Source: an uncultured archaeon
GTDB lineage: Archaea; Thermoplasmatota; Penumbrarchaeia; JASLWR01
Assembly (NCBI GenBank): GCA_964430885.1
Contig: CAYSHM010000009.1
Location: forward strand, 38,703 to 102,702
Direction of reading: 5' to 3'
Length of the DNA: 64,000 bases
How positions within the stretch are numbered: the first letter of the stretch is position 1; each line of letters begins with the position of its first letter. The translations under genes were made by a program, and so were the position numbers. The notes under the pieces are model-generated. The model did no database searches. It saw nothing but the letters and a program-made list of their open reading frames with translations, and was not told the DNA's origin. Shown here piece by piece: positions 20,083 to 56,900 of this stretch.

Positions 20083-21369
20083 TTATAACCCCTCCATATC
20101 TAGATCAATATCATCCAACCATTCGTCATCCTTCTTTTCAGGCTCCGGAGCTGGCGGTGCTCCTACATTGGATCGAACCATTACCGAATCCTCTATCTCC
20201 ACATCCCCTCCACCTGCTACGTTAGAACGCTGCATGGTAGTCCCCTTTATGGTGGTCTTTCCGCCACTACCGCCAGCTGGAGGCGGTGCACCTGGTACTC
20301 CTCCTCCGCCAGATCCGATCTTGGACCTCTGGATAACTGAATCGCTTATGTGTGTGGACTGGTCCTGTATTAGACTGCCTATATTGATCTGAGTCTCTGT
20401 GCTCTTATCAGGTTTGTTGACTGTTATCCAATCCTGTCTCTTATAATTGAATCGATTACGCTGTTCATCGAAGAATACAGTTAGTATTTCAGCTGGAATT
20501 CTTCCAGCCTCGCTGGCTCTTAGACCAATTGTAACGGTTTCCTCTTCTCCAGCAGGTAAAACCCTTATGGGATCGATAGTACTGACGTCCATTGGCCCCT
20601 TGATCTCAACATGAATGTTGACAATAGAAACATCGGACCTATTAACAACACGGAGTCGAACCTGATCCCAGCTTTTGTACTCGACCTCTTCCTCTATGAT
20701 GTCAAGGAATACTTCCGGTGTGTTTTCAGCAGTCACTCCAGTGAAACCACCAGCCATGCCGGAGCTCTGTTTTCCTGATGGGTCAAGAACTGTGATCCAT
20801 TCATCGAGATAGGTTGGTATGTGCCTGTTGTCCATCTTGCTGTAGGCATCCACGGTAATTCTTATCTGGTTATCGCCTGCATTTTCAAACAATCCTACGG
20901 CTTTCACGGTAATATCATCCTTAGGCCCAAGCATGGATATGGTATCTATGTCCGTATTCACCTCAATATTGCCGTCGAATTCAATATTGATATCCTTGGC
21001 AGCAACATTCCCTCTATTCTTGATAGCTATCTCGAACTTTCGTTGTCTTCCTGCGACAAATATGTTGTTAAGGTTAGCATCAACAACAATATCAGGCATG
21101 CTCTTACCGACTTTGCTTTCGGCTGCCATGAGCGCCTGATCCGATAGTCTCTTTGCCTCATCATAGTTCATCTTCTCAAAGATACTATCAGCCTGGCGTA
21201 TCAACTCGTTAGATTCATCGAAGTTCAATCCAAATGAGGAATACTGGCTTAAATAAGAAGCAGCCTTGTTGTAGGAATCAAAGGCTTTCTCGAATCTCTC
21301 CTCCCGGGTATTGAAATCATGTTCCACGGCCTTGAGAATGTCCAAGGCTTTCTTGTAATTCTTGTTCAA
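20083..21369 (-). CDS. Cytoplasmic helical-repeat protein with two Ig-like (CARDB/NEW3-like) domains and a low-complexity tail
   Basis: TTG start with SD GGGGTGA; no signal peptide or TM; two IKNRG/VVNRS..I.+E+.G...V...I..L...G modules. Confidence 0.75.
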   Translation of the reverse strand: MNKNYKKALDILKAVEHDFNTREERFEKAFDSYNKAASYLSQYSSFGLNFDESNELIRQADSIFEKMNYDEAKRLSDQALMAAESKVGKSMPDIVVDANLNNIFVAGRQRKFEIAIKNRGNVAAKDINIEFDGNIEVNTDIDTISMLGPKDDITVKAVGLFENAGDNQIRITVDAYSKMDNRHIPTYLDEWITVLDPSGKQSSGMAGGFTGVTAENTPEVFLDIIEEEVEYKSWDQVRLRVVNRSDVSIVNIHVEIKGPMDVSTIDPIRVLPAGEEETVTIGLRASEAGRIPAEILTVFFDEQRNRFNYKRQDWITVNKPDKSTETQINIGSLIQDQSTHISDSVIQRSKIGSGGGGVPGAPPPAGGSGGKTTIKGTTMQRSNVAGGGDVEIEDSVMVRSNVGAPPAPEPEKKDDEWLDDIDLDMEGL

Positions 21370-22748
21370 CTGCTCACCCCCTTCAGGAGTTTCTTGGCTT
21401 TTTCAATCCTCTCCTCCAGATCATCGGTGATAAGCTTGTAGCTGGCCTTGGACCCAATTCTGTTCTCAAGCTCTTCCATGATCTTCTTAGCGGATTCGAA
21501 GTTTTCCACAGTTTCATTTCCATCGTTATAGGCGCTTCTAGCTTTTTCCCTCGCTTGATCGTAAACGCCCTTTGAAAAATAATCTTTAGCGCTGTCGTAA
21601 TTGGCCACTGAATTCTTATCTTTGGCCCCAAGTTTGTTCATCTTGTCTATTATATCGCTGGTCTTGTCAAGGAATTCCTTGGCTGTTGTGAACCTGTCCC
21701 TCAACTCTGTAGCATCTCTCTTAAGGTTAACGGCTTTGTCCTTGGCTTTGCCGAGATCGCCACTGTCCAGTATTTTCTCAAGTTTATTGATGGATGCCTC
21801 AAGTTCAGTTACCTTTGCATTTTCATTCTTGAGTGATTTTATTGTGCCGAATACCTCTACGATCTCCTTTGTGCTGGAATCCACCTTGGAAAAATATGAT
21901 TTCAAAGCATCATATATGGTTTGGAATGCCTCTTCCATCCTGTTCATTGCCCTATCATAACCCATACCTGTGAAGCTCCCTCCCCTTTTGGCCTTTTTCG
22001 CTTCAGTAAATTTATCATCAATGAGTTTCAGGTCTGCATTTTTGAATTCCTTTTTGACCTTGTTTCTCAGCTCCTTGAGCCTTTTGAAATCAACTGCAAT
22101 AGATTTTCTCCTAGATGTGATAGGTCTGATGAAATAGAATATTGCCATAATGACCACTATCACCAAAGGACCCACCCATGCAAAGGAAATCCCCGCATCA
22201 TTCATGAACACATATGACGCGACTGCAAGGGTCCAGGTGAGTGTACCTGAAAAGAGAGTGTGGAAGAATCCGGCCCCTGAACCGCGGTTGGTAAGTCCCA
22301 GGAAGGTCAGAAGTCCTCCCAAAAGAAAGATCATCTGGAAAAATCCTTCAGCATTGCCAAGGAGCGCGGCATTGTGAATAAGCCCGGTCTTTATCTCGTC
22401 AATTCCCTTTTCAGCTCCGATTATCATGGGACCGCAGAAGAAGATAAGACTTGCCATTGTCAGGATTATTACCCATCCTTTGGTGGCCTCCCTACTACTC
22501 CGCTTTGATATTCTCTGGACCAGAAAGAATAGTCCGATGATGGTTCCAAGAATTATCAAGGTCTCGATAATTCCGATCATGAACATCCAGCCAGTAGGCC
22601 TTAGTTTGTCCATCAAGGTACCGTGGTTCCCAGTCACAAAAACTCCGAATGCTGTATAGGCGAACATAACAGCTAACCCACCGGCAATTATTGCCCAGAA
22701 TAGAGTGCTTATTCCCCATTTAGATCTAAGATAGTTCACATGAATCAT
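21366..22748 (-). CDS. Multi-TM membrane protein with C-terminal helical repeats
   Basis: About six hydrophobic segments, then ~65-aa charged repeats; 4-nt overlap with the downstream gene. Confidence 0.75.
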   Translation of the reverse strand: MIHVNYLRSKWGISTLFWAIIAGGLAVMFAYTAFGVFVTGNHGTLMDKLRPTGWMFMIGIIETLIILGTIIGLFFLVQRISKRSSREATKGWVIILTMASLIFFCGPMIIGAEKGIDEIKTGLIHNAALLGNAEGFFQMIFLLGGLLTFLGLTNRGSGAGFFHTLFSGTLTWTLAVASYVFMNDAGISFAWVGPLVIVVIMAIFYFIRPITSRRKSIAVDFKRLKELRNKVKKEFKNADLKLIDDKFTEAKKAKRGGSFTGMGYDRAMNRMEEAFQTIYDALKSYFSKVDSSTKEIVEVFGTIKSLKNENAKVTELEASINKLEKILDSGDLGKAKDKAVNLKRDATELRDRFTTAKEFLDKTSDIIDKMNKLGAKDKNSVANYDSAKDYFSKGVYDQAREKARSAYNDGNETVENFESAKKIMEELENRIGSKASYKLITDDLEERIEKAKKLLKGVSS

Positions 22749-22971
22749 GCTAATTCTTCCCTGTTTTTTTCAAGAATAATTCAGATATGAAATAATGTAG
22801 AAACAAGGACAAGTATTTTTATTTTGCTTTTGTTTTCAAATGCCTGTTGAATTCACTGGTGAATTTAAAAAATTAAAAATTTGGTGGTTTTTCCTTCAAA
22901 ATCCCGCTTTTGAGGTTTTAATTGCCGTTCAATATTGAATAATCAATCATAATTCGCCAATGGTAATTCCT

Positions 22972-24000
22972 CTAGAAAGTAAGTATCTCATAATCCCATA
23001 GTATACTGTCACCGTTCTTGAGGATGAATTTGTCCGCTCCTACCATTGGGAGTTCCTCGTTCACCCAGAATTGCCAGTACTTACCTCCATCGCCATTGAT
23101 GTCAGGTCCTATTGAGTCCACAAGGGATGAATCGAATGATTCATAATAAGTATAGTTAAATTTCAGGTTGTTCCGGCGGCAGACATCCTTCAGTACGACA
23201 AATGCATTATTTTTCTCCATGTTGACAATATAGAAATCGGTTATCTCCCAATCATCACCTTTGAGGGTGATCTTAACGGATGATGAGTCAGGGTTCTCTG
23301 GCCACATTTCGCTCCTCTCTGGAACCCTGGCAGTAGTGCCTGTGAAAGATACAATGCATATTACTAGGGTTACTGCCACGACTAAGGCCTTCCGTGGGAT
23401 CGCAAATCTTTTCAGCTCGACAAACCCGACCTTGTTCTTGTACAGATATACCGCTGGCAGACCGATCAATATGAAGGTGAGGGCGCCGGAAACTGCATGA
23501 TATATCATGAATGGAAGTCCCGCAGCGAACACTGCTCTGAGATATCCCAATGTATGAGGATAAAGAAGGTACCACCATCCGATATTGGTCCAGACATCGT
23601 AGATCAGGGAAAGTCCAACGCCTATGCCTCCCACAATTGCAAATTCTTTGACTCCAAGTTTCTTAATCCATCCATCGATATTTTTCCGATTGAGTATGTT
23701 AATCAAGGCCATTATGGCAAAACCGGAATAGGTGAAGAGCACTATCCGGTTCATATCGCTCCCGATAAAAATCGGGTTTCCTATAAGAAGGTCGCTGATT
23801 ACCATGCAGATAAGGGGAATGAACCAGGAAATGGAGGGAATAAGGAGCATAGCTCCAATGAATGTTACCACCATTATCAGTTCGAAATTGGGGAATGGCT
23901 GAAGATTGTAATCAACCAGTAAAAAGCGCCCTAAACTGCCGATTATTATCAATATTAGAAGTAATATGCCTCGCTTGACGGTCAAATCCTTGTTCATCAT
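22972..24000 (-). CDS. ECF S-component-like (DUF6580/CbrT-like) transporter fused to DUF4430 (transcobalamin-like) domain
   Basis: PFPNF, ISDLLIG, TNIGWW and AGLPF in the TM part; VDSIG...KYWQFWVN...VGAD...LKNGDSILW.Y at the C-terminus. Confidence 0.72.
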   Translation of the reverse strand: MMNKDLTVKRGILLLILIIIGSLGRFLLVDYNLQPFPNFELIMVVTFIGAMLLIPSISWFIPLICMVISDLLIGNPIFIGSDMNRIVLFTYSGFAIMALINILNRKNIDGWIKKLGVKEFAIVGGIGVGLSLIYDVWTNIGWWYLLYPHTLGYLRAVFAAGLPFMIYHAVSGALTFILIGLPAVYLYKNKVGFVELKRFAIPRKALVVAVTLVICIVSFTGTTARVPERSEMWPENPDSSSVKITLKGDDWEITDFYIVNMEKNNAFVVLKDVCRRNNLKFNYTYYESFDSSLVDSIGPDINGDGGKYWQFWVNEELPMVGADKFILKNGDSILWDYEILTF

Positions 24001-24152
24001 TCACACCCTTTTTCCATAGATTGTCAAAATTTTTGAATCAATAAAGGTAATGTTCCAGTGTCATCAAAGGGAACTATTGTCCTGTATATATATTATTTTC
24101 TTTCCTGAATACAGCATATAGAACTGGAAATAATGGCCAATAAACTATTTGT

Positions 24153-24773
24153 CTACCAATATCTTTCCTCTTTCCAGGGGTCTCCGTGCATATGATAACC
24201 ATTCCTCTCCCAGAATCCTGCTCGATCTTTCTCCATGAATTCGATCCCTGTCACCCATTTGGCGCTCTTCCAGAAATACAATCTAGGAACTACAAGCCTT
24301 ACTGGAGCTCCATGGGGTGCATTAAGCGCCTTTCCGTTATGTGAAAACGCCAACAGGACATCTTCTTGAAAAAGATCAACCAATGGTATATTGGTAGTGA
24401 AATTCTCATGAGCATGGATCATTGCATATTTTGCTTTGGTGGATATCTTTACAAGATCCTTTATGGTCAGGGAACTGACCCCTTCCCAGTAATTATCCAG
24501 TAAAGACCATGTTGTTACACAGTGTATATCGGAAAACACTCTGGTCCTTGGCAGCTGGAAAAAATCCTTTTTGGTCAGTACAACCTCCCTATCCACAAGT
24601 CCGAATATCCTGAATGTCCATTTCGTATCAAGCCGGGGTATCCTGCCGTGGTGAAGGACTGGCCAATTATCAGCTAGATGCTGACCGGGCGGGATGCGGT
24701 TGGACCTTTTAGTGTCAGGACTAATGATAGTTCTCATTTTTTCCACCGGGTCAGTGTGAATGCTAAAATCCAT
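24153..24773 (-). CDS. Sulfite oxidase-like molybdopterin oxidoreductase (YuiH-like)
   Basis: RIPPGQ, DIHCVTTWS, HGAPVRLVVPRLYFWKSAKWV and GFWERNGYH. Confidence 0.92.
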   Translation of the reverse strand: MDFSIHTDPVEKMRTIISPDTKRSNRIPPGQHLADNWPVLHHGRIPRLDTKWTFRIFGLVDREVVLTKKDFFQLPRTRVFSDIHCVTTWSLLDNYWEGVSSLTIKDLVKISTKAKYAMIHAHENFTTNIPLVDLFQEDVLLAFSHNGKALNAPHGAPVRLVVPRLYFWKSAKWVTGIEFMEKDRAGFWERNGYHMHGDPWKEERYW

Positions 24774-24807
24774 ACTATGGTTATTGAATTAGCACTACAG
24801 GATATGA

Positions 24808-25491
24808 TTATTTTTGCTCAGAGTCATGGGTGGATAAAGTCTGGTTACTGTAATCGGGATTAGCTCCAGAGGGCGGAGCGGCTGAAGTTGGAGAAGCTGG
24901 AGCGAATGCTCCTGTGGTGCCTAGTCCCGCTTTCAATGCAGCCTGTTTCTGTTTTTGCTTTGATATTATCATGAAACCGACCATAAGTAAGGTGAATCCA
25001 ATGACGCATCCGCCTATCATTGCCGGCATGGCCCATGAATCACGGGTGTAAGGAGTAGTGATGTAGATCTGAGCATTTTGGGTAGCCCTGACGTTATATG
25101 ATCCCTTGCTGGGTGCATGAAAGGAACCGTATTTCACCCATTCTTCATATTCCGTCTCGTACCAATAATCCGATTCCATTATGCCTATCTCCTCATTCGT
25201 GGAAGTGGTAATGGTAACGGTTCCGGGTTCGTTGCTCTCAATTATATCGTATTCACCGTATTTGTTAACATACCATATCTGGTATTTCCCCTCGTCAAGC
25301 TGAACCGGTCTGGATGAAACCGAACTTACCGAAGGCGATGCAACAGCAAGATCATCTGGAGAACCCATGTGAATCACACCGAATACAATACCGAGAACAG
25401 CTATCAGAATACCGTCAATGATCATTGCAATGGCCAAGGTTTTGGCCAGTCCATCTTTCGAAAATTTTTTATTTCCCATGTCATCACCCAC
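24808..25491 (-). CDS. Hypothetical 2-TM membrane protein
   Basis: Two TM helices flanking a beta-rich loop; Ala/Pro-rich tail. Confidence 0.65.
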   Translation of the reverse strand: MGDDMGNKKFSKDGLAKTLAIAMIIDGILIAVLGIVFGVIHMGSPDDLAVASPSVSSVSSRPVQLDEGKYQIWYVNKYGEYDIIESNEPGTVTITTSTNEEIGIMESDYWYETEYEEWVKYGSFHAPSKGSYNVRATQNAQIYITTPYTRDSWAMPAMIGGCVIGFTLLMVGFMIISKQKQKQAALKAGLGTTGAFAPASPTSAAPPSGANPDYSNQTLSTHDSEQK

Positions 25492-25745
25492 TAGGAATAT
25501 GAGAATTATTGAATCATAGATAGTAATAAATAAGGTATTAGATTTGTATGAAAAAAGGGGTAAATATAACTTACGGTACTATATCATAAATCCACCCACA
25601 TACTCAACATAAAAAACCTTTTGCAACAAATAGTACAAACCCTAATATCTACATGCCGCCAAATCTGAATCCATGCAGGGTGCCAGTGAATTATCCCATT
25701 GTCATGACTTCCTATATACTTTTAAATAATACTTTATTCTATCTA

Positions 25746-26855
25746 ATGAACATGATTCTTCCTGAACTGCTTTCCGAAAATGAAAGGAATGTTCTCTACG
25801 GGTTGACAGTTTACCCCTATCTTAATGACCGGCAATTGGCCGAGAAGCTCGATTATAAGGTTTCAACCCTCACTTCGATTAAAAACCGGCTGAAGACCAA
25901 GGATTATTACAGGGAAGAAGCGGTACTGTCCTTTGGTAAAGTAGGTTTCAGGATACTTCAGTTCACTGTGGGATCCGGCCATTTACTGTCTCATGACGAA
26001 TTATTTGATGTTGTGAATGGTGTTGAGATAGATGAAGATAAGAGGACTATCTATCTCACCACGGAAGACAATAATTTTCTAATAATGACGGTTTTCAGAG
26101 ATTTCCATGAGGCCAAGAAATGGACTGGGGATATCCGGCAGCAGCTTCAGGATCGATACAAGAGATATGCAACCATTTCCTCTGTTCAATACCATATCCC
26201 GGATATCCTGGGCTTTTATCATCTGGAACATCAGAGAGCACTTGGGAGAATCCTTGGAATGAAGAAGAAGATGCCCCGTCCTGATCTATACTGGTTATGC
26301 GATCTGAAGCCGTTGAAAATGAGGAAACTTGAAAAAAAGGTACTTTTCGGTCTTGTCAGATATCCTGATATTCCTGATAACAAGATAAGCGAGAAGATCA
26401 ATGTGACCCGGCAGGCAATTTCAAGGGCCAAGTACAATTTCAGAAAAAGAAGGATGATCAGGAATTTTAATGTTCCCAATATGGAAAAACTGGGTACGGG
26501 CTTGTTCAGTTTCATAAGGATGAAATTGAGAAGTGATATTCGACCTGATGCTCTTAACGGTTTTATTTATACACTGATAAAAAAACTCACTCCTTCATCT
26601 TTGATATATGACAAATGCGAATGCTGCTGTATCTGTTATTTTGATGATATGAACGATCTGAGAGAACGAACCGTCATGCTCTTCAACAGCAGGTTAAAAA
26701 GCGTTTTGGGATCCGAACCCGATGAGGAAAAAATTGTGGTCAATAATATACTGTCGGGTCCACCCGTTACCAGCATCTTTTCATTAAAAAGGATGAAGAA
26801 TCACCATTCATTCAACAGCTCTTTGCCAATCGAAGGATTTCTGGAGATACAATGA
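25746..26855 (+). CDS. Tandem winged-HTH (Lrp/AsnC-like) transcription regulator
   Basis: Two homologous HTH units: ERNVLYGLTVYPYLNDRQLAEKL..KVSTLT and EKKVLFGLVRYPDIPDNKISEKINVTRQAIS. Start uncertain. Confidence 0.75.
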   Translation: MNMILPELLSENERNVLYGLTVYPYLNDRQLAEKLDYKVSTLTSIKNRLKTKDYYREEAVLSFGKVGFRILQFTVGSGHLLSHDELFDVVNGVEIDEDKRTIYLTTEDNNFLIMTVFRDFHEAKKWTGDIRQQLQDRYKRYATISSVQYHIPDILGFYHLEHQRALGRILGMKKKMPRPDLYWLCDLKPLKMRKLEKKVLFGLVRYPDIPDNKISEKINVTRQAISRAKYNFRKRRMIRNFNVPNMEKLGTGLFSFIRMKLRSDIRPDALNGFIYTLIKKLTPSSLIYDKCECCCICYFDDMNDLRERTVMLFNSRLKSVLGSEPDEEKIVVNNILSGPPVTSIFSLKRMKNHHSFNSSLPIEGFLEIQ

Positions 26856-28021
26856 AAACGAATAAAAGGGAACGCAAAAAGGTGACCATTGTATGGGCTA
26901 GGACAGTGCTGGAGGCGCGGCTTCTGAGAGTTGCCAATACTCTATCCGAAGACGGTTACAGCGTTAATGTATTTGCCTGGGACCGGGAAGCGCGAAAACC
27001 CGATATTGAGGGACATGAAAAGTTCAAATGTCATTATCTTCATATGAAATCGCCCTATGATTCGCCAGTTACATTTCTTCTTCTGCCCTTGTGGTGGTTT
27101 CTCAGTTTTATTTTTCTCATAAGGAACAGACCCAAAGCGGTGCATGCCTGTGATATGGATTGTTTTGTGCCTGCTTTGCTTTATTCCAAGATAACGGGAA
27201 GCAGTTTGATCTATGATATTTTTGATATTTACGGATCCATGGTGGAGGCTTCGGTTCCGTCTTTTGCTTCGCGTTTGCTGAAGTCAGTTGAAGGCTGGTG
27301 TGCCCAAAAGTCGGATGCCGTAATTATGGTTAACACATTTCAATACAAGGAATTAATGGAACCCGATATTCAGAGGAAGCTATTCCTTGTAAATAGTCCC
27401 CATGAGGTGGATATCAGGGAAGTGAGGAAAAGAGGCCGTGCCCTGAAAACAAGTCTGCCTGAAAAGAAGAAGCGGTCCACATTGATTTTTTTCGCTGGAA
27501 GTCTTCAATACAAGCGCCGTTTCGACCAGATGATCAAGGCTATTAAAGGTCTTGATGGTGTTCATCACATTGTGGCTGGTGCCGGTGCCGACGCGGATAG
27601 ATTGATACCCATGTTCCAGGGATCGGAGAACACCGATTATATCGGCCCTATATCCTTCGATGATGTACTGGCCTGGTCCAGTGTGGCGGATATAATCTAC
27701 GTCCTTTTCGACAACTCCGTCAAGAAGTACCGATGGGGTGCCCAGACCCGACTTTTCATAGGAATGATGCTTGGAACTCCGGTGCTGGTTACAGATGACA
27801 GTAATCCTGCTAGGATAATAAAGGAAGCCGGTGCTGGCTTTGCGGTGAAGGACGGTGATATAAAGGGTCTCAGAAAGGCAGTTAAAAAACTGGTGTCATC
27901 CCCCGCTACCCGAAAGAAGATGGGTGAGAGCGGGATGGCCGAATATAATAAAAAATATGCCTGGGGAGAGATGAAATATGAACTGCTGGACCTATATTCA
28001 GAGCTGATGGGGGATAAATAG
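26852..28021 (+). CDS. Glycosyltransferase family 4 (GT-B)
   Basis: VHACDMD, LIYDIFD, FFAGSL...R, M.LGTPVLVTD and AGFAV..GD. Confidence 0.85.
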   Translation: MKTNKRERKKVTIVWARTVLEARLLRVANTLSEDGYSVNVFAWDREARKPDIEGHEKFKCHYLHMKSPYDSPVTFLLLPLWWFLSFIFLIRNRPKAVHACDMDCFVPALLYSKITGSSLIYDIFDIYGSMVEASVPSFASRLLKSVEGWCAQKSDAVIMVNTFQYKELMEPDIQRKLFLVNSPHEVDIREVRKRGRALKTSLPEKKKRSTLIFFAGSLQYKRRFDQMIKAIKGLDGVHHIVAGAGADADRLIPMFQGSENTDYIGPISFDDVLAWSSVADIIYVLFDNSVKKYRWGAQTRLFIGMMLGTPVLVTDDSNPARIIKEAGAGFAVKDGDIKGLRKAVKKLVSSPATRKKMGESGMAEYNKKYAWGEMKYELLDLYSELMGDK

Positions 28022-28022
28022 A

Positions 28023-28493
28023 ATGGGTGAACCACCAGAGATGAAGGGCCGGAAGCGAACCTTGGCCGTATTGGGCATAATAGTGCTGATCATCTTACTG
28101 GGATTTATCGGTTACAAATACGTGATACCGCGTTTAGACCTGGAAGTGAAGGTGGTCTACAGGGAATCCCAGCTGGCGAATATCAATCTTACAGTGATCA
28201 TATCCAATGAGGGCAATACGGATGTTGATGATATCTGGGTCCGTGTAAACATGGACGATGAGAATGGCCGGACTATGGGCGAGATGAACAGAACATATCC
28301 AGGATTGTCTTCGGATTCAAGCAGGGATTTCGGCAGGAATTTGGTAGGCGATCAGGGCTTGGATCACATAATCAATGTCTCAATTTCCTTTGAACATGAC
28401 GGTAAGAGATTTTATAAGGATTGGTCTTTTGAGGAAAATGAGGAGATCATGCTTCTGGCCTTTGAAGAACGGATCAGCGATTGGTTCCCATGA
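28023..28493 (+). CDS. Hypothetical membrane-anchored Ig-like protein
   Basis: N-terminal TM; VIISNEGNTDVDDIWV CARDB-like strand pattern. Confidence 0.6.
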   Translation: MGEPPEMKGRKRTLAVLGIIVLIILLGFIGYKYVIPRLDLEVKVVYRESQLANINLTVIISNEGNTDVDDIWVRVNMDDENGRTMGEMNRTYPGLSSDSSRDFGRNLVGDQGLDHIINVSISFEHDGKRFYKDWSFEENEEIMLLAFEERISDWFP

Positions 28494-28496
28494 TAA

Positions 28497-30026: not shown

Positions 30027-30197
30027 CCATCCCCGCTAATTCTAAAATTCCATTAATGAAGGTGTCATCCATTTTGTAGTTCCAAATTCGATTTAAATAT
30101 ATAATAAATATTAGCATCATATCTTCATATTACAACAAAAAGGAAAAGCAGGTAAACTGCTGGAGAGTCATAGTTTTTGAGGGATTCAGTTCAATAT

Positions 30198-30860
30198 TCA
30201 TACTATCTGATCAATTATTTCCCTGCAGGTGGTCACATAAGCAAAACCGAATGCCAGATTCAGGAGAGTGGCAAGATGCATTTCCTCTATAATTGAACCA
30301 TTCCCATCGGCTGGAAAGAAGACCCTATAATCCCTGAAATATGCGTCTCTGGCAGTGGAATCACAGCACATATTCGTCATGAGCCCTGTAATGACCAGGT
30401 CCTTAATGTTCAAACATCTCAGCACAGTTTCCATATCGGTATTATAGAAGGCCGAATATCGGTGTTTGAAGATAACCTTTTCCAAGGGGAGAGGCGCTAG
30501 ATCATCATGTATCTCGCTCTCGGGGCTTCCTTCAAGACACATCCCTTCCCACCACCATCCCATTATTCCCGCATCATTATGGGACGGATGATGTACATGG
30601 CGTGTGAATATCACAGGAGCGCCTTTAGCCCTGAATGATTCTATGAGCTCTTTTATTTTCGGTAGGACCGCGAGGCCTCCGCATGTGAAGGATGGAGAAT
30701 CCGGATCGAGGAAGAATTTTTGCATGTCTATTACCAAGAGGGCAGTTTTACCAGGATCTATATTCATTACATGTTGGTTGAAAGTGCTTATCTTTTCCAG
30801 CCAGGTAATGCATTTATCATCAATGTTATCCTTTGTAGCATATGGTTCCATGATGATCAC
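30198..30860 (-). CDS. Isochorismatase-family cysteine hydrolase
   Basis: ALLVIDMQ, KHRYSAF and TNMCCDSTARDA (D-K-C triad). Confidence 0.92.
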   Translation of the reverse strand: MIIMEPYATKDNIDDKCITWLEKISTFNQHVMNIDPGKTALLVIDMQKFFLDPDSPSFTCGGLAVLPKIKELIESFRAKGAPVIFTRHVHHPSHNDAGIMGWWWEGMCLEGSPESEIHDDLAPLPLEKVIFKHRYSAFYNTDMETVLRCLNIKDLVITGLMTNMCCDSTARDAYFRDYRVFFPADGNGSIIEEMHLATLLNLAFGFAYVTTCREIIDQIV

Positions 30861-30920
30861 TTCTGTTCATTAGATATATATTCAAAAGGACAAATGGACT
30901 ATTCTCGATGATGCCTTTTA

Positions 30921-31520
30921 TCAATTAAATGAAAACCTGCTTTCATCTTCTGCAGACCTATTTTTCATAGGATCCTTTTTCTTAGATTCTTTTTTCTCTA
31001 TATTGTTGTAATATTTATAACTGCCAGTGGCTGCTCCTAGAACGCAGAATAAGAGGTTCAGTATGAATATAAGTACGAGAATCGTGGTGTCCCAGGAACT
31101 GCCGCTCATCTCTTCTAGTATTGTACCTCTAGCGTATTCTTGAGCAATGAGATAAATGAAATAGATCTCCAATAAGCTGATGAAGATGGCGGCAATTACA
31201 GCAATCTCAATGGCATATCTTCTCTCAACCCATCTGCTGCTCCTTCTCGCAGCAATGAAGGGTACTGCAGTGAACAGCAGAAGTATTCCGCCGGGGATAA
31301 GTAATATTGGCATGGGGGCGATCCACCATATTAGAAGGGAAAGTAATCCTCTATGATAGAGCTGAAAAGGGCGTTCATCCTTCCGATCCGGTTTTTTAAA
31401 ATCATCGCTCTTTTCGTCTCGCCTCTTTTCACCGCTTCGGGTATTTTTTTTAAACTTTTTGTATTTCCCTTTATTCCTCCCTGGCCCCTGCTTCCTTCTT
31501 TCAATTTTATTACCTTTCAC
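30921..31520 (-). CDS. Hypothetical membrane protein
   Basis: Basic N-terminus and three to four hydrophobic segments. Confidence 0.6.
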   Translation of the reverse strand: MKGNKIERRKQGPGRNKGKYKKFKKNTRSGEKRRDEKSDDFKKPDRKDERPFQLYHRGLLSLLIWWIAPMPILLIPGGILLLFTAVPFIAARRSSRWVERRYAIEIAVIAAIFISLLEIYFIYLIAQEYARGTILEEMSGSSWDTTILVLIFILNLLFCVLGAATGSYKYYNNIEKKESKKKDPMKNRSAEDESRFSFN

Positions 31521-31950
31521 TTATAATGCACCCTCATTTATCTAGATGGTCTGAAGAATTCACCTTTGGAGTTTCTATTCGCCTCTCTAAGAATAACCCA
31601 TCATTAGAACTTGTAATCTGCAGGATATATTATAATTCTATCTGTAAGATACTTGACAGTTATTGAATGATTTATTTGCTAGAATAGTAACCGAATTTGT
31701 TTCTATTTGCTTGTGAACCAACAGCCTTGATTTTGATTTCGATGTTATGAAACAGAGATATATTTTATACAATACCTATTTTATACTATACGCAACATAT
31801 TAGGTCGTTAATCCTGCTGTACATCAATTGAAATACGAAGTAGATACTATTGTGAATCCAATAATATAGAATGATGTCAATCCGAAGACCATTGTTCAAT
31901 AACTAATAGAATAATACCAACAGGAATCAATTACCTAGGGAAGTGATACT

Positions 31951-34900
31951 ATACCGCGAAAGGTATTCTCTTTAAAGGTGCTCCTATTTGTAACGCTCTT
32001 GGCACTAACCAGCGTTCAGGGGCTAATAGCTGCATACAGTCCTTTGGACGGTCCGTTGAGCGGTACATCTTCTACCATAAACAGTCTCACCCTCATGGAT
32101 GGTGAGTTGGGGAGTGTTTGTTTAGCTAGATATAGATCCTATACCTTCAGGGTTGAGGTAGAAGATGATGAAGGTGCTTCTGACATTGCATTCATAAACA
32201 TATCTCTAGAACCCATGGACCTGGATATTACCTATTCATGGTATCGATATGGTGCACAGAATTTCAAGGAGGTTGCAGGGACCGATCCCAATGGCTATGT
32301 GTCCATAACCTCAGATAACAACGATTGGTCCGATCTGGATGCCAATACCACAAGGGTGGAGTTCCAGCTCGAGTTCGATTGGGATTATCCCTACGAGGCC
32401 ATGGGCGACATTCTCGTATCGGTTCAGGATAACGATACCGGGGCGGTATATACCAATCAAACATATTTCAATGTATACAAGGTTGAGAACGATCTGGTAC
32501 TTACGGGAGGACTGACTGCTGTTGCCCAGCACCAGGGAACAATAACCAGCGGGGCTTGGGTGCGGGGGAATGAGGTCATCACATTTGGAGGCCAGAGTGT
32601 TACTTACCAGGGGTATGCAAACCGTTATCCGGCAGACGATCATTTCTATGTCAGGGTAATAAATTCAACAGGTTCCCAGTGGTGGGATAACGTTTCTTCC
32701 GGGGGTAACTACCAGGTTCAGGTCACCTCGCCAGGCTTTTCAACGGCATCAGTAACATATACAATAGAGATAGGTGAGATACCGGGCGGAAGAGATGGCG
32801 ATATGCCCGGCAATCAGGTTTTCAATACCGCAGTGGATGCCGTCCGGCCTGCTCTGCGCACCTGGGCAAATCTTCATTTTGAGAACCGGACTCATTTCAC
32901 AAATGACCCCTGGGTCTATTTCAATTTTTACGGTCTCTACGATCCCGGGACCGTTACTTCAGGCGTGAAGGGTTATTATTACAATACCATAGACAGGAGC
33001 GGGACAACTCAGGGAACCTATACCACTTCATCTTGGGATGTTATTCAAATGAATCCCGGGGTTAACAGATTGTATATATGGTCCGTTGATAATGTGGGAA
33101 ATATTGGTAACACAGCAGTCCAGGATTCCATCCTTGTTGATATCGAAGCGCCTCAGCCGGGAACATTGGCACTCCAGGGGGGTGATGATTACTGGAACAA
33201 TAGTATTACTGAGGTAACATGGACAGGGTTTACCGATGACTATGAGGCGGAAGAAGATATAGCAGGATATTATTACGGTACCACCAATAATCAGGGGACT
33301 TCCAACGGTATCCATTCATCAGGCGGGCTCAGAGAATATATCTATAACGGTATAAATTTTAATACTCTGGTCCATGTACAGTACGAAGGGACCGTAAACC
33401 ATAATTGGGGCAATAACGGCGGTCCGGGCCACGGAGCAGGGGGCAGTACTTTTTCAATTATTTGGAACGGGTCGGTTTATGCTGATGAGACTACCACCTA
33501 TAATTTCACCATCGGGTCTGATGACGGGTGCAGACTGTACATCGACAATGAACTGTTTATTTCCAGGTGGTACAACAGACCATACGCAGAGGATACTGTC
33601 AGCGTAAATCTGGAAAAGGGCTTCCATCGGATAGAGGTACATTATTATGAGAACAATGGCGGTGCCAGCGTGGCTCTGAAGTGGAAGAAATGGGGTGCGG
33701 CCGGAAATCCCGTGGTCATACCAGCGAACAGACTATGGGGCGGTCAGGATACTGTCACTATCGATCTCGTAAGCGAAGGCGAGCACTCGGTGTATGCATG
33801 GGCCCAGGATTACGGAGGTAATATAGGTCCGTCAGTATCGGATACCATTTCCCTAGATTTTGAAGACCCTGTGGCCTCAAACGCTTGGGTTTCCGTTCAG
33901 GATGGTGCTCAATATAATTCCGATCAGACCATTGAGGTGGAGTGGGACGGTTTTGAGGATCCTGCTTTTTCCTCAGGTATACGCGGTTATTGGGTGTCCT
34001 ACTTCAACGCAAGTCATACGGATACCGGCATTTGGTCCGAGAACAAGAGCATTGAATTGGATTGTGCAGAAGGCGTTCATACGGTCTATGTATGGGCCGA
34101 GGACGCTGCTGGAAACAGGGGGATCGCCGTGAACGATACCATAGAGGTGATCTATCCGGCCCTGGACAATTTTACCCACACCAACCAGGTTCCCCGGGGT
34201 AAGGAGACGAAGTTCACAATGAACCTCACTGATGTGGTGTTCGGGGAAAGCGCACTTGATGTTGTGCTTCAGATGAAGGAAGGATCGGATCCTGACGGCT
34301 GGGTGAATCTTACGGTGGAATATGTGAACGATACCAGAGCGGACGGTTACTGGCAGGCCTTCTACACTCCATCCCTGGATATCTTGGCCAATACCATTTA
34401 CGATCTTCGGGTCCAATACAGCAATTCGGGGGGATATGTTTCACCTTGGGCCTCCTATGCCTTCAGGGTAGTGAACAATATACCGATAATAAACGGCAGC
34501 AGTAATTTCACGGCTTTGGAGGGTGAGGATATCACTGTTGATTTCAGGCCTTTCGGCTACGATCTGGAATCAAAGGGGGATTATCTCTTGACATGGTATG
34601 TTCAGGATTATGAGGATCACGCCATAGAATCCATAACGCCAGGTGATGACCCTGGAATTTTCGTTTTTACTCCTTTCGATGATTTCTCCGGGACGGCAGT
34701 TGTGAAGATGGGTCTCAGGGATGAAGAGAACCAGGTGGACGAAGAGATATTTTATTTCACCTGGCTGGATGTCAACGACCCGCCGGAAGTGAAGGATGGG
34801 GTTCCGACAACGATAACCCTCCAGGAAGATGATGACCCCTATCCGGTGTACTTTGATGATCTCTTTTTTGATCTGGAAGGGGATCTACTGTTTTTCAACT

Positions 34901-36156
34901 ATTCCGATCCGATCAATCTGGTCATAGAACAGAACCTTTACGCATTCATGGTGAACGGGGTGAACAACTGGTCAGGGTCCGAGGATGTGGAATTCCAGGT
35001 CAATGACGGGTATAACGGTACATCCATAGTAATTACGTTTATAGTGGAGGAGATAAACGATGCACCGCTGCTTCTGAACGGGTCTGTGGAAGTGTCCTTT
35101 CTAGAGGATGGTGATGCTGAAATCGGGCTGTTTCCTCATGTTTATGATTCCGATGATACCGATTTAGAATTCAATCTAATGAATCGACCCAACGTCTTCA
35201 GTGATATATATGTCGATATGGGAAAATTGTATGTCAAACCCGCGGCAAATTGGTTCGGGAAGGTTGAAGTGAATGTTTCTATAGAGGATTCCCATGAGGA
35301 GAAGGTTTACCTAATACTGGTCTTTAATATTACTGGGATCAATGACTTACCTGTTGCCTATTTCGAGCATATGCCGAGCAGTATTGATCTGGGCATCGAT
35401 GTAAAAACCCTCTTGGGCAGAGGTGAGGATGTAGAAGGCAGTATCAAGGAATATATGTGGACCTCTTCCCTTGACGGTGAGCTGGGAAGCCAAGGAAGTT
35501 TGGACCTATCTGAAGTGGACAACTTGACCTTGGGAAAACATACCATAACCTTCAAGGTAAAGGATGGTGACAATAAATGGTCTCAAGAGATAAGTTCTGT
35601 ATTGTGGATATCCAAATCCATTCCGTCTTTGGAGATAGTGAGTATCGATGTTGAGCCTGGCAGCGGTGTAGTTGTAGACGATACGGTTACCATAACAGTA
35701 ACCATTCGGAACAACGGCATGGTCTTGATAGAGAATTTGAGCGTAAAGGTGTTCATTGATGATGAACTGGTGGATCAGGATCTTTATCGGCATGTTTTCA
35801 TCGGGGATGAGAAGAGCTTCTCCGCCGAATGGACTGCTGAAAGGGGTTCCCATGACATCCGTATCGAAGTAATGGATGATCTGAATACAAGCATTGAGGT
35901 TGGGAACGGTAATGAGCTTGAGATTGATATGGATGTGAGTGCTAACAATAATATGATGATTTTCTGGGCGGCTCTGATCATTGCAATAGTGATAATAATA
36001 ATATTCTTCCTGGTATCGGCCCTGATCAGGAAAAGAAGAAAAAGGAAGATAGTGAAAACCATATTGTCCAAAGCCCACAAAAGTAAAGAAAAGGGAGTGG
36101 CCATGGTTGAGGTGGAGGAGATTCTGGATACAATAAAGCAGGAATTCAAGATTTGA
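31951..36156 (+). CDS. Surface protein: FN3/Ig-like modules, PA14, cadherin-like repeats, CARDB, TM, helical half-repeat tail
   Basis: PA14 (FSIIWNG, SDDGCRLYID, YYENNGGA); [VI]NDxP repeats; CARDB. The ORF track starts at GTG 31978; ATA 31951 is proposed instead (see findings). Confidence 0.83.
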   Translation: MPRKVFSLKVLLFVTLLALTSVQGLIAAYSPLDGPLSGTSSTINSLTLMDGELGSVCLARYRSYTFRVEVEDDEGASDIAFINISLEPMDLDITYSWYRYGAQNFKEVAGTDPNGYVSITSDNNDWSDLDANTTRVEFQLEFDWDYPYEAMGDILVSVQDNDTGAVYTNQTYFNVYKVENDLVLTGGLTAVAQHQGTITSGAWVRGNEVITFGGQSVTYQGYANRYPADDHFYVRVINSTGSQWWDNVSSGGNYQVQVTSPGFSTASVTYTIEIGEIPGGRDGDMPGNQVFNTAVDAVRPALRTWANLHFENRTHFTNDPWVYFNFYGLYDPGTVTSGVKGYYYNTIDRSGTTQGTYTTSSWDVIQMNPGVNRLYIWSVDNVGNIGNTAVQDSILVDIEAPQPGTLALQGGDDYWNNSITEVTWTGFTDDYEAEEDIAGYYYGTTNNQGTSNGIHSSGGLREYIYNGINFNTLVHVQYEGTVNHNWGNNGGPGHGAGGSTFSIIWNGSVYADETTTYNFTIGSDDGCRLYIDNELFISRWYNRPYAEDTVSVNLEKGFHRIEVHYYENNGGASVALKWKKWGAAGNPVVIPANRLWGGQDTVTIDLVSEGEHSVYAWAQDYGGNIGPSVSDTISLDFEDPVASNAWVSVQDGAQYNSDQTIEVEWDGFEDPAFSSGIRGYWVSYFNASHTDTGIWSENKSIELDCAEGVHTVYVWAEDAAGNRGIAVNDTIEVIYPALDNFTHTNQVPRGKETKFTMNLTDVVFGESALDVVLQMKEGSDPDGWVNLTVEYVNDTRADGYWQAFYTPSLDILANTIYDLRVQYSNSGGYVSPWASYAFRVVNNIPIINGSSNFTALEGEDITVDFRPFGYDLESKGDYLLTWYVQDYEDHAIESITPGDDPGIFVFTPFDDFSGTAVVKMGLRDEENQVDEEIFYFTWLDVNDPPEVKDGVPTTITLQEDDDPYPVYFDDLFFDLEGDLLFFNYSDPINLVIEQNLYAFMVNGVNNWSGSEDVEFQVNDGYNGTSIVITFIVEEINDAPLLLNGSVEVSFLEDGDAEIGLFPHVYDSDDTDLEFNLMNRPNVFSDIYVDMGKLYVKPAANWFGKVEVNVSIEDSHEEKVYLILVFNITGINDLPVAYFEHMPSSIDLGIDVKTLLGRGEDVEGSIKEYMWTSSLDGELGSQGSLDLSEVDNLTLGKHTITFKVKDGDNKWSQEISSVLWISKSIPSLEIVSIDVEPGSGVVVDDTVTITVTIRNNGMVLIENLSVKVFIDDELVDQDLYRHVFIGDEKSFSAEWTAERGSHDIRIEVMDDLNTSIEVGNGNELEIDMDVSANNNMMIFWAALIIAIVIIIIFFLVSALIRKRRKRKIVKTILSKAHKSKEKGVAMVEVEEILDTIKQEFKI

Positions 36157-36217
36157 TTGAAGATTACAGGTTTCTGGTAATATCAAACGGAAGTTGTAGA
36201 TTCTTTGGTAACGTGGT

Positions 36218-38083
36218 GTGGAAATGAGCAATGATGATAGATTTCAAAACAGGATAAAGGATGTGACGGAAATTCTGAATAAAACCGTTGCCTACCATGA
36301 TTATCTTGAAAAGGAACTCCAGAAGGTTGAAGTTGAGATTTCGACCTTGAAGGCCGAAGGAATGCCTGTGGAAAGAGCCGAGGTTCTCATTTCAGATGCA
36401 AAAGAGATCTTTCAGAGGTCCAAAGGCCTGGATGATTATAAGGAAGCAAATTCTATACTTCAGTCGGCCCAGAGGGAAAGCAAGGACATGGAGAATCGTG
36501 TCCAGAGATTTCTCACCATGGTCTCGGAGACCCTTGCAAATGTCAACAAGTATTCGGATATGGGTTTGGATATGGGCAATGCCCTTAAACTCCTCTCCCA
36601 GGCCAGGACCAAGATGAACAACAGGGAGCATCAGGCTGCTATACTGTTTGCCAGCAGGGCCTGGAACCTCACCGAACAGATTTATCAGAAATATGAACAG
36701 CTAAATGGTTATCGGGAACACATCCAGCAGAGATTTGACGAATGTAGTCATTTCGGTATTGTGACCCCTGATATCCCCATTTTGATCAAGGAGCTTGATG
36801 AGCATATAAAGCGCAATGAGTTGAAGCTGGCCTATGATAAGATAGAAGCATTGTCCGCGATCCTAGACAACAGGGAAGGGGATTACGTGAATGAGATGAT
36901 CCAAGAGGTCTATTATGAGATAAACCGACATTCTGGTGTCCCCCTGAATGCTACCCTTGAGGTCCTATCCCAGGCTGAATATTCCATGTCTCAGGGCGAT
37001 TTCGGTACTGCCATCGAAATGGCTCGGAAGGCCCGTCCTCTATTGGAGGAAGAAATGGAAAGATACCACCGGTTGCGTAAGAAGGTTGAATCCATTTCAG
37101 GAAGACTTTTCCATGCTAAGAATCTCGGAGTCCAGGTGTTTCAGGCTGAATCCGCATTGAACGAGGCCGATGCCGCATTGCAGGTTTCAGAGTATCAGAT
37201 GGCTGAAGGATATCTTCAGCAGGCGGATAATGAGCTAAAATCTTTGGAATATGAGGTCCAGATGAGGGAAAGGCAGGGAATTGAACACCTCAAGAGAGCA
37301 GTTGACAATGGTCTTAGAATATTGAAGGATGAGATAGAGACCGAGAAGGCCCGGGGTGTCGATACAGATGACCCTGAAAGCATCCTGTCCAAGATCCTCG
37401 AAATGCTTTCTGATGCATCAAATATAGATGAATTCAGGAAGATCCAGGAATACCTTGGTCCTGCTCATTCAGCACTCAGCAGGGCTCGCTCCCGTTTCAA
37501 CAAGAAGGAGAGCGAGGAACAGCATGGGCGTCAGGATATCGATGACATGGCGGAAAAGATCAAACAGATGGAATCAGTTATCAATATTCCTAACTCTATC
37601 CTTGCACACTTACAAAAAGCGGAGGAATGTTATTCGAATAAGGAATATGTCGAGGTCACCAGGAATCTTGGCCAGATGGAGCAGTTCTTCAGCATGATAA
37701 ATGATGAGGATGTTGATCTTGAGATAGATATGGAAGTGATCCAGAAGGAGATTGTTGAGGGAGATTGGGCGAAGACAAAAATGAATATAGTGAATCTGAG
37801 TCATCTTCATCTGAACCACTTGCGCTTTGAGATAGGCGGTGTTGATGAAGTTAAGGGAATGCGAAATATCCGTGACTTCCATGGCAATGACAAGACTGCT
37901 ATGAACTTCTTTGTAAAATTCAAGGAACTCGGTCAGAACAATGTAAAGGTCAGGGTGAAGGGCCGGAAGACAATCGATAGAAGCATTTTTCGGATGGTTG
38001 TTAAGACAGACGTATTTGTCGGAAAAGGTGATAAATGGTTCGAGGATGAGCTGGGAGAGGACGGATCCATTGAGTGGTCCTAG
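36218..38083 (+). CDS. Cytoplasmic helical-repeat rod protein with C-terminal Ig-like domain
   Basis: About seven ~65-aa repeats (K..G[VML]....A...L..A.......Y..A); the C-terminal domain resembles the Ig-like domains of 20083..21369. Confidence 0.78.
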   Translation: MEMSNDDRFQNRIKDVTEILNKTVAYHDYLEKELQKVEVEISTLKAEGMPVERAEVLISDAKEIFQRSKGLDDYKEANSILQSAQRESKDMENRVQRFLTMVSETLANVNKYSDMGLDMGNALKLLSQARTKMNNREHQAAILFASRAWNLTEQIYQKYEQLNGYREHIQQRFDECSHFGIVTPDIPILIKELDEHIKRNELKLAYDKIEALSAILDNREGDYVNEMIQEVYYEINRHSGVPLNATLEVLSQAEYSMSQGDFGTAIEMARKARPLLEEEMERYHRLRKKVESISGRLFHAKNLGVQVFQAESALNEADAALQVSEYQMAEGYLQQADNELKSLEYEVQMRERQGIEHLKRAVDNGLRILKDEIETEKARGVDTDDPESILSKILEMLSDASNIDEFRKIQEYLGPAHSALSRARSRFNKKESEEQHGRQDIDDMAEKIKQMESVINIPNSILAHLQKAEECYSNKEYVEVTRNLGQMEQFFSMINDEDVDLEIDMEVIQKEIVEGDWAKTKMNIVNLSHLHLNHLRFEIGGVDEVKGMRNIRDFHGNDKTAMNFFVKFKELGQNNVKVRVKGRKTIDRSIFRMVVKTDVFVGKGDKWFEDELGEDGSIEWS

Positions 38084-38969: not shown

Positions 38970-39112
38970 ATTAAAAGGCATCCTTTATTGAGCTTGTTCG
39001 ATATTTACGGTAATATAAATAGAAATGTAGGACTTTTTTTGCATAGGTTTTTTTATATCAGTTCTTAGAAGAAAATAATAGATATGATATTAATCAAAAT
39101 TTGTTGATAATT

Positions 39113-39141
39113 TATGGATCAAATAAGTATGGATCAAATAA
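39113..39141. repeat. Perfect 14-bp direct repeat TATGGATCAAATAA x2
   Basis: Copies at 39113-39126 and 39128-39141. Confidence 0.8.
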
Positions 39142-39172
39142 TTATATAATATATTCAAAGGAAGGTAATAGG

Positions 39173-46387: not shown

Positions 46388-46569
46388 TATTGTCCGCCTC
46401 TGATCAAATGTTCAGATGTAATTTTGAAAGTGAATATTGATGTGGATATTGAATCACCTTTATTTTGGATTTATCAATAAATCATAAAAACTATTTAATT
46501 TCATCAATATTAAGGATAGCTATGGAGGATATACCTATTGACCGGAATATAAATTCTATTTCATTTACT

Positions 46570-49818: not shown

Positions 49819-49957
49819 ATCTTGAATATGATAAATTTAATGATAATTCACTTCAACATATAAACCTTACATCTAGGTAAATAATTTAAATACTACTTTG
49901 ATATATTGGATTTGGCAATTTGTTTGCTATGAAATTTTTCTCTATATGGTGATGATC

Positions 49958-56645: not shown

Positions 56646-56900
56646 GATATTATATTGAAGGTAATTAATTATAATTGTTCTATTGGGCTGCTTTCAGGTA
56701 AATCATTTCAATCAAATCTATTTTCAATATATATTCATTTAAAATGAGCTGAACTGTGGCATGAATAGTTAATAATTTATAACTGATATGTATTATTTAT
56801 TAGATTACCATAGGGATTGCAGATAGAATGTCTGGGAACAGCCGTTAATTAATGGTTGTTCATTGATCCCCGTTCTATTGATAGATATGAAGGTGTTGGT

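Follow-up and report, generated by a model that had tools for sequence, protein, structure and literature searches.

Do two neighbouring genes that each carry part of one helical unit encode the halves of a single non-covalent assembly? Two loci raise this question in a 64,000-nucleotide (nt) window (the whole stretch of DNA analysed here, contig C9:38703-102702) of a 3.13-Mb, 44-contig archaeal assembly, whose source is an uncultured marine archaeon and whose relatives carry the label Thermoplasmatota. Locus 1, on the minus strand, comprises three genes encoding P0001, P0002 and P0005; locus 2, on the plus strand, encodes P0003 and P0004 (Table 1). At both loci, a membrane protein (P0001 or P0003) stops after a short helix and the soluble protein that follows (P0002 or P0004) starts with a long helix, as a first-pass annotation of the window had noticed and as structural models and sequence comparisons indicate. 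The open reading frames (ORFs) and translations are as that annotation described them. We conclude that this is a real and undescribed gene-pair architecture. Its most economical explanation, to which we assign a probability of about 55%, is that the tail of one chain and the head of the other dock by completing a putative three-helix bundle in trans, a reading of sequences and predicted models that draws on a fused relative, a conserved phase of the split, overlapping gene junctions and conserved hydrophobic residues.

A helical repeat is divided between membrane and soluble partners

A repeat of 59-76 amino acids (aa), built from one short and one long helix, is present in P0001, P0002 and P0004. 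The shared repeat of ~65 aa reported in the first pass is real, as judged by the alternating helices in AlphaFold2 (AF2) models of P0004 and P0001 and by a BLASTP alignment of P0002 residues 4-68 with P0004 residues 73-134, a segment that begins with a long helix and reaches the following short one (E 0.001). The AF2 model of P0004, computed from a four-orthologue alignment, has a mean predicted local distance difference test score (pLDDT) of 82.9 and a predicted template-modelling score (pTM) of 0.42. In this model, long helices of 36-53 aa (H5-44, H69-112, H136-176, H200-235, H260-300, H324-376 and H401-449) strictly alternate with short helices of 14-16 aa (H50-64, H118-132, H183-196, H242-256, H306-320, H382-397 and H457-471) at a period of 59-76 aa, and are followed by a beta-sandwich (residues 499-599) and a disordered tail. 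The AF2 model of P0001 is of low confidence (mean pLDDT 56) and has the same alternation of helices past the last transmembrane (TM) helix (H192-234, H241-256, H261-308, H314-329, H332-373, H378-393, H396-432 and H440-459).

Superposition on entries of the Protein Data Bank (PDB) describes how the helices of the P0004 model pack. Designed three-helix bundles match residues 21/22-96 with root-mean-square deviations (rmsd) of 1.7-2.0 over 66-76 residues (Z 8.8-10.2); this segment takes in the C-terminal half of H5-44, the short helix H50-64 and the N-terminal half of H69-112. A longer stretch superposes on the N-domain of BB0323 (Z 10.7, 149 residues), and residues 9-159 superpose on the EzrA fragment 4uy3 (Z 9.2, rmsd 3.0, 148 residues). 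For helical repeats, Z values below ~13 are not evidence of relatedness, and the matches serve here only to describe the model. Because of these superpositions, each long helix in the model can be said to span two successive three-helix bundles. P0004 is therefore modelled as a rod in which continuous helices connect successive three-helix bundles, a prediction from a four-sequence alignment at Z 8.8-10.7. A Foldseek search of the PDB with the same model returned matches to the immunoglobulin (Ig) sandwich alone.

The repeat is abundant in the genome: the first iteration of a hidden Markov model (HMM) of the helical hairpin gave 116 hits, spread over 19 ORFs. By eye, the ORFs that bear it include a J-domain protein and a membrane protein that resembles an insertase. 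Giant cytoplasmic proteins of 1502-3278 aa without a TM helix also consist mostly of this hairpin repeat (C17:38983..52299, C18:10466..29070 and C5:98349..105293), and several of their genes are adjacent. We considered the adjacent rod genes on C17 as a further split and rejected them: one junction is a run of N (a scaffold gap), and the repeat does not continue across the other.

The P0001 chain ends '...EERIEKAKKLLKGVSS' after its short helix, leaving the first half of a hairpin without the second half in the same chain; this C-terminal half-hairpin scores 6.8 bits (rank 19/5370). P0002 begins '(L/M)NKNYKKALDILKAV...', and its residues 2-19 correspond to positions 18-35 of the hairpin HMM. 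It is the only one of 31 hairpin-HMM ORFs to start mid-hairpin, 31 being an over-count (~19-20 is safer) because the HMM, built from this genome, had drifted to canonical TPR proteins by iteration 5 (for example, C10_52281 and C28_28475). When each of the 982 adjacent same-strand gene pairs is scored as the sum of the C-terminal half-hairpin of the upstream ORF and the N-terminal half-hairpin of the downstream ORF, locus 1 ranks first with 26.0 bits, a score at which random re-pairing gives 0.01 pairs.

At locus 2, the tail carries the clearer signal. In an alignment of the P0003 tail with those of three orthologues, residues G, V, E, L, F and I are invariant. The tail alone ranks 66/5370 as a half-hairpin; with an HMM specific to the P0004 repeat, positions 1-19 match at the very C-terminus and the tail ranks 8/2100. 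It also aligns with the tails of four other lineages. On the soluble side, orthologues of P0004 in three related genomes (G001, G002 and G003) are 34-35% identical to it and all start MD(E/N)SDEF. The first modelled bundle of P0004 uses residues 22-44 of the first long helix, and residues 5-21, with the invariant F7 and L18, project beyond it.

These observations suggest a model in which each locus encodes a membrane-spanning assembly of two parts. The membrane partner would be either the polytopic P0001 or the single-pass giant P0003, and its cytoplasmic end would present two of the three helices of a bundle, namely the end of a long helix and then a short helix. The third would come from the first ~20 residues of the long helix with which the soluble partner, P0002 or P0004, starts. 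Beyond this, the soluble chain is predicted to continue as a rod of the 59-76-aa repeat, followed by one or two cytoplasmic CARDB-type Ig domains and an acidic, Trp-containing peptide. Non-covalent completion of the bundle would thus tether a rod-Ig adaptor in the cytoplasm to the membrane protein's tail, and the short or overlapping gene junctions would favour co-translation of the two chains.

The gene boundaries are conserved

An obvious concern is that an assembly or sequencing error has split single genes. The G002 genome, which represents a different genus of the same family, is informative. There, the P0001 orthologue (43-48% identity) ends '...RILRGAV' and the P0002 orthologue restarts at a GTG codon as 'MNETYREAL...'; the two genes overlap by 1 nt (TAGTG) in the same relative frame as in our genome, and the giant surface gene comes next. 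P0007, a metagenome protein with the N-terminus 'MNEDYKKAL', begins at the same residue as P0002. As a separate observation, the P0001 orthologue of G002 is broken into two frames within its last TM helix (G002:C102, ~4900), possibly by assembly error or gene decay. This break shows that errors or decay occur in such metagenome-assembled genomes and is the one point in favour of an artefact; the break aside, the downstream split from the P0002 orthologue lies at the same residue as in our genome. Among the listed sequencing runs, none of which is recorded as RNA, contigs of X1 and X2 cross the locus 1 junction (21366-21369) with 0 differences, though the assembly may itself derive from these two runs; X3 has the junction only at the end of a contig, and X4 lacks it.

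Locus 2 is split in the same way in 4/4 genomes of the family (our own, G001, G002 and G003): a tail, a stop codon, a spacer of 6-67 nt and an ATG. In our genome, the spacer is 61 nt (67 nt to the ATG). In G001, G002 and G003, tails of the form '...GVG..EA...L.E....F.I.LK' end at a stop codon and, after a spacer of 6-12 nt, the next gene begins 'MD(E/N)SDEF...'. A search for further loci with the P0004 alignment returned two on genome contigs (G001 and G003) and one on a metagenome contig identical to G001, adding no new lineage. With the locus 1 boundary at the same residue in a second genus and the locus 2 boundary in 4/4 genomes, the boundaries are not assembly errors; the same boundary is seen across three genera, in independent genomes, and also in a metagenome protein, and an artefact is hardly credible.

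Could the two ORFs nonetheless yield one polypeptide, by programmed frameshifting at locus 1 or stop-codon read-through at locus 2, and leave no inter-chain docking to explain? In favour of this idea, the frame offset of the downstream gene at locus 1 is the same in both genomes, and in G001 and G002 the locus 2 ORFs lie in the same frame with a single TAG and 2-4 codons between them. However, neither locus 1 junction contains a canonical slippery heptamer, as read from the sequence, and start codons and Shine-Dalgarno-like purine runs are present. Moreover, the locus 2 ORFs are not in the same frame in our genome or in G003; the relative frame is not conserved because of a 1-nt spacer indel between G001 and G003. 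TAG is an ordinary stop codon here, used by 372/1703 ORFs. The conserved splits, the differing frames and the common use of TAG therefore argue for two separate products, and we regard frameshifting or read-through as very improbable.

The gene pair recurs beside different ectodomains and output domains

Similar Ig-like domains had been proposed for the two soluble partners. Residues 92-178 of P0002 pass the Pfam CARDB (PF07705) cut-off (26.5 bits vs 22.7; E 7.5e-6). The sandwich of P0004 has no Pfam match, and its pairwise similarity to the P0002 Ig domain is weak (E 1.2). A profile built from the Ig domains of both proteins nevertheless finds relatives outside the model (for example, 3.3e-28 and 2.2e-25), which places the P0004 sandwich in the same profile family as the P0002 Ig domain and supports the proposed similarity; the family is a distinct CARDB-type sub-family.

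This cytoplasmic Ig profile (alignment A4) was run on 37 genomes of the class and 121 sampled genomes of the phylum, and gave 49 matches in 14/37 of the former and matches in 15/121 of the latter. The context of 20 further matches was examined: five were unreadable (contig ends or masked sequence), 11 had no neighbour of the expected kind, three (G014, G005:C63 and G028) were pairs and one was a single chain. In the pairs, the tail is of one type, with a single-pass TM helix, a helix of ~25 aa, [GS]x[DEP], a short helix and the end of the chain, and the rod-Ig gene comes next. For example, the G014 pair combines a Kelch ectodomain with a 4-nt overlap and a head starting 'MSKKIALYKKAMKTAKAA...' ('..YKKAMKTAKAA'). 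The G012 pair consists of a 2529-aa surface protein and a 1085-aa rod-Ig protein. Further pairs are found at G005:C63, in G028 (4-nt overlap) and in G024, the last from the same genus as G028; with G014 and G012 they represent four additional lineages of the class. Nine tails align well, in six pair groups within which kin are not independent.

One genome carries the two parts in a single chain. G005:C70 combines FG-GAP and CARDB ectodomains with a TM helix at 519, after which come helices, an Ig domain at 662 and DSVxHRS repeats; its Ig domain and tail match P0002 (E 2.6e-11), and its helical parts give no significant alignment. The first-pass annotation had asked whether orthologues occur as single fused genes; the split is kept in the orthologues, and G005:C70 is a single-chain relative in one genome. 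Longer, fused homologues of P0001 itself were sought and none was found, which is weak evidence.

The soluble partners differ in what they carry at their C-termini. Those of G028 and G024 have a Ser/Thr kinase domain (Pkinase, E 3.2e-35 and 7.4e-37). At these kinase loci (G028:C288 (L100) and G024:C218 (L064)), a surface protein with a two-helix tail precedes a protein with N-terminal helices, a cytoplasmic Ig domain and the kinase, with a 4-nt overlap (G028) or a gap of ~34 nt (G024) between the genes. Read from sequence, this arrangement resembles a receptor kinase whose two parts are encoded by separate genes. The C-terminus of the G014 partner is winged-helix-like by eye, with no such match in Pfam. 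Other members of the Ig family, lacking a membrane partner, end in RING-like Cys/His fingers, with sub-threshold matches (zf-C3HC4_2, E 0.0019; Prok-RING_1, E 1.2e-4 and 7.7e-4). RING-like members occur at G003:C13 (L083), G010:C512 (L048), G006:C5 (L047) and, in our genome, C5_1366_4632(+); in two of them, relatives in G010 and G006, the fingers are followed by the termini ...DVDWE and ...VVSWE.

Because the outputs of the soluble partners vary (Ser/Thr kinase in some, acidic tails in others), coupling of surface proteins to cytoplasmic effectors, as in an adaptor or signalling role, is favoured over a scaffold; the data suggest such coupling rather than a skeleton. The first-pass annotation had spoken of a docking code that links surface proteins to a sub-membrane scaffold. 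We found no evidence for a specificity code and none for a sub-membrane scaffold. A broader picture, which we offer only tentatively, is a plug-and-socket system in which surface proteins with diverse ectodomains (PA14/cadherin-like giants, Kelch propellers) share a two-helix stub that is completed in trans by interchangeable rod-Ig proteins. Equally tentatively, the outputs of such a system might include Ser/Thr kinases, acidic Trp peptides and possibly RING-like fingers, making these pairs split receptors or linkers from surface to cytoplasm, based on a spectrin-like principle of bundle completion with an independent origin in Thermoplasmatota.

Do the halves dock?

The principal alternative to bundle completion is that the partners are operon neighbours whose helix ends merely fall in loops, with any link between them provided by co-expression, by other surfaces or by a third component; locus 1 would then be a tolerated ancestral gene fission. 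Several results weigh against docking; of those listed here, the second to fourth and the orphan tail also speak for this alternative. First, locus 1 stands alone in the genome: no other of the 982 pairs stands out, so a significant split hairpin is found in 1/982, and its occurrence in two genomes may reflect a single ancestral fission. The terminal helix of P0001 is also modelled at low confidence (pLDDT ~42-52). Second, locus 2 is not significant in profile tests. The pair ranks 14/982 at -1.1 bits (tail +2.5, head -3.5), and with the P0004-specific HMM the head ranks 33/2100 and is out of register. When the same HMM was run on virtual junctions, its alignment crossed the junction in 0/4 orthologous pairs, and 28/400 random-tail and 93/400 random-head controls scored at least as high as the P0003-P0004 pair, a test of low power because the clear locus 1 junction is not spanned either. 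Judged from these sequence profiles, locus 2 is only partly above chance, its head half lacking profile support. The claim that the repeat phase at gene ends is non-random holds for locus 1 and only in part for locus 2. Third, the extra pairs score weakly, with in-register C-terminal halves of at most 2.8 bits (G014, G005, G028 and G012) and N-terminal halves of 8.0 (G014), 2.4 (G005), -0.9 (G028) and 1.0 (G012) bits, and gaps of ~145 nt (G012) and 173 nt (G005:C63) separate the genes in two of them. Fourth, 11/15 readable rod-Ig genes have no such upstream partner, and neither do C5_1366 and the C7 paralogue in our own genome. There is also an orphan tail: C7_70516_73749(-), a 1077-aa surface protein, ends with a TM helix, a basic helix, 'GVGV' and a short helix, and its neighbour is convergent, with no adjacent rod gene. 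Finally, a shared loop end in a three-loop repeat is not very improbable, since gene ends favour loops.

Chance placement of helix ends in loops fits other observations less well. The same phase is seen in six pair groups, beside unrelated ectodomains (PA14, Kelch and others) and unrelated outputs, and this conservation supports bundle completion. The tails keep their amphipathic pattern while the rest of the sequence diverges (24-31% identity), and the invariant F7 and L18 lie on the stretch of the head helix that extends past the first modelled bundle. A fused relative exists, and locus 1 is an extreme outlier. On balance, we consider it rather unlikely that the partners are operon neighbours that do not complete a bundle.

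A different kind of link could come from the C-terminal peptides. We define an acidic tail as 8 or more D/E residues among the last 20. The first pass had pointed to acidic-Trp termini on both soluble partners; such termini are present, that of P0002 reading DDEWLDDIDLDMEGL, and the terminal Trp is invariant in the four P0004 orthologues. The feature is not specific, however: acidic tails, many of them D/E-W in type, are found on 39/210 ORFs of 1000 aa or more and on 67/1703 ORFs of 150 aa or more. Within the window, acidic tails also occur on giant single-pass surface proteins (39101..45820, 46465..49818, 49898..55582 and 56856..60866). They come in two flavours, one of repeated D/E-W (ending ...DWD, ...DDW or ...EW) and one amphipathic, 'DDFDE(L/F)LSDLEDF'. 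The split hairpin would be incidental if these acidic Trp or amphipathic peptides docked to a common cytoplasmic receptor, perhaps the helical repeats or the Ig domains. The abundance of such tails among large ORFs, the invariance of the Trp in P0004 orthologues and its recurrence as ...DWE and ...SWE in G010 and G006 agree with this idea, and the Ig model resembles adaptin and GAE ear sandwiches (Z 8-10), which is a common fold and a lead only. No receptor was identified, however, the fold matches are generic, and the half bundle on membrane partners that have no acidic tail would stay unexplained. We judge it improbable that peptide docking is the whole account; it is in any case compatible with bundle completion and does not exclude it.

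Features of the two loci

Giant surface genes accompany both loci, as the first pass had reported: P0005 at locus 1 and P0003 at locus 2. P0005 is the third gene of the locus 1 operon, and the three-gene order is identical in G002. Its C-terminus (15505..15590), '...GDINDLRKKYLEGNLSTEEFIRRMK', is SHOCT-like by eye and is kept in the G002 orthologue; the tail has no Pfam match at E up to 0.1. In P0001, a basic stretch, read from the sequence, follows the last TM helix. The Gly-rich region of P0002, for which no family name was found for its DSV motifs, recurs ahead of zinc ribbons in a HEAT-like plus Ig paralogue, C7_106835_108166(-), and in C2_13138_14217(-). At locus 2, the 272-aa gene after P0004 is a doubtful member of the system.

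Table 1 Features of locus 1 and locus 2 (positions in the window)
Feature	Position	Strand	Description
P0001	21366..22748	-	460 aa; polytopic membrane domain ~1-206, then cytoplasmic helical rod
P0001 terminal short helix	21369..21431	-	Residues 440-460, '...DDLEERIEKAKKLLKGVSS'; H440-459 in the model
Locus 1 junction	21366..21380	-	Stop TGA and start TTG overlap as TTGA
Shine-Dalgarno-like sequence	21380..21374	-	GGGGTGA, 4 nt upstream of the P0002 TTG start
P0002	20083..21369	-	428 aa, soluble; N-terminal long helix 1-46, one further hairpin
P0002 CARDB-type Ig domains	20782..21087 and 20410..20712	-	Two domains
P0002 Gly-rich region	20131..20400	-	~Residues 325-413; three 'DSV(I/V/M)(Q/V)RS(K/N)(I/V)G' motifs ('DSVxQRSxIG' stretch)
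P0005	15505..20082	-	1525 aa giant surface protein, CarboxypepD_reg repeats; C-terminal TM helix, short cytoplasmic tail
P0003	31978..36156	+	1392 aa giant surface protein with PA14, CARDB and cadherin-like parts; C-terminal TM helix
P0003 cytoplasmic tail	36028..36153	+	42 aa; basic helix, 'GVAM', short helix VEVEEILDTIKQEFKI, stop
P0004	36224..38083	+	619 aa from ATG (GTG at 36218 possible); N-terminal long helix, ~seven repeats; acidic tail ending ...GSIEWS
P0004 first long helix	36236..36355	+	Residues 5-44 (DSSP of the model)
P0004 Ig-like sandwich	37706..38023	+	
272-aa gene	38151..38969	+	Directly after P0004 in 4/4 family genomes; weak DUF460 match (E 8.3e-4, below cut-off)

Relation to known systems

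The spectrin repeat is ~106 aa long with three long helices, and at the tetramer site two helices come from one chain and the third from the other. Alpha- and beta-spectrin tetramerize through a non-covalent three-helix bundle formed by the tails of two chains (PMC9082959), within a rod whose bundles are linked by continuous helices. The logic of our models is the same, with two helices from the tail and one from the head, and the spectrin analogy drawn in the first pass fits their topology. In contrast to spectrin, the repeat here is 59-76 aa with a middle helix of 14-16 aa, one partner is an integral membrane protein and the system is archaeal. No Pfam match to the spectrin family (PF00435) was found for P0001-P0005 at E up to 0.1.

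EzrA, a 'spectrin-like' protein of bacteria, offers a second comparison. It is described as a membrane-tethered cytoplasmic rod of about five ~100-aa triple-helical bundles with an N-terminal TM helix, all in one chain (PMC4243239). It resembles our system as a prokaryotic cytoplasmic rod of linear triple-helical bundles tied to the membrane. Here, however, anchor and rod are encoded by separate genes, the soluble rods have no TM helix and the repeat is 59-76 aa. The EzrA family is absent from the Pfam output, and we found no sequence relation to spectrin, EzrA or TPR proteins.

The occurrence of genes as split and fused forms, the Rosetta-stone pattern, is a classical predictor of physical interaction. 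The pairs described here share its hallmarks: adjacent genes, overlaps of 1 or 4 nt and a fused homologue elsewhere (G005:C70). They differ in where the cut falls: inside a structural unit and, across several lineages with different ectodomains and outputs, at one and the same helix boundary.

Among helical families, P0004 residues 251-351 pass the Pfam cut-off for YfdX (PF10938; 27.9 bits vs 26.6, 100/149 profile positions). P0001 and P0002 have no YfdX match, and a G003 relative matches with E 0.0044. YfdX itself is small and bacterial, and its fold combines a four-helix bundle with a three-stranded sheet and a two-helix bundle (PMC6339873). By contrast, residues 242-376 of the P0004 model form helices only, with no strands. 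The DUF4398 structure 4fm3 superposes on the P0004 model (Z 10.5), and what our repeat shares with YfdX and DUF4398 is a helical hairpin motif of the A...L..G.Y..A type. This motif also resembles those of TPR and MIT proteins; in the Pfam search, matches to such families were sub-threshold only (TPR_NAA35, E 0.019; PrgX_C_TPR, E 0.035).

As for the Ig domains, the first of P0002 passes the CARDB cut-off and the modelled sandwich of P0004 is like many Ig-like domains. Unlike CARDB domains elsewhere, the copies here are predicted to be cytoplasmic, as they lack a signal peptide and, in the fused G005 protein, follow a TM helix with positive-inside topology.

The principle of bundle completion is known from spectrin and membrane-tethered prokaryotic rods are known from EzrA, whereas the gene-pair architecture is undescribed: a literature search, with supplementary files outside its scope, found no description of it.

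If the halves dock, these gene pairs would constitute a simple, genetically modular means by which archaea couple large surface proteins to effectors in the cytoplasm, a kinase among them, on the principle used by spectrin. If true, this would also provide a testable handle on how uncultured marine archaea tie surface proteins, possibly adhesins, to the cell interior, as well as a compact natural heterodimerizing helix pair. More broadly, the large unannotated family of helical repeats, together with the cytoplasmic CARDB-type Ig family, makes up a major share of these proteomes.

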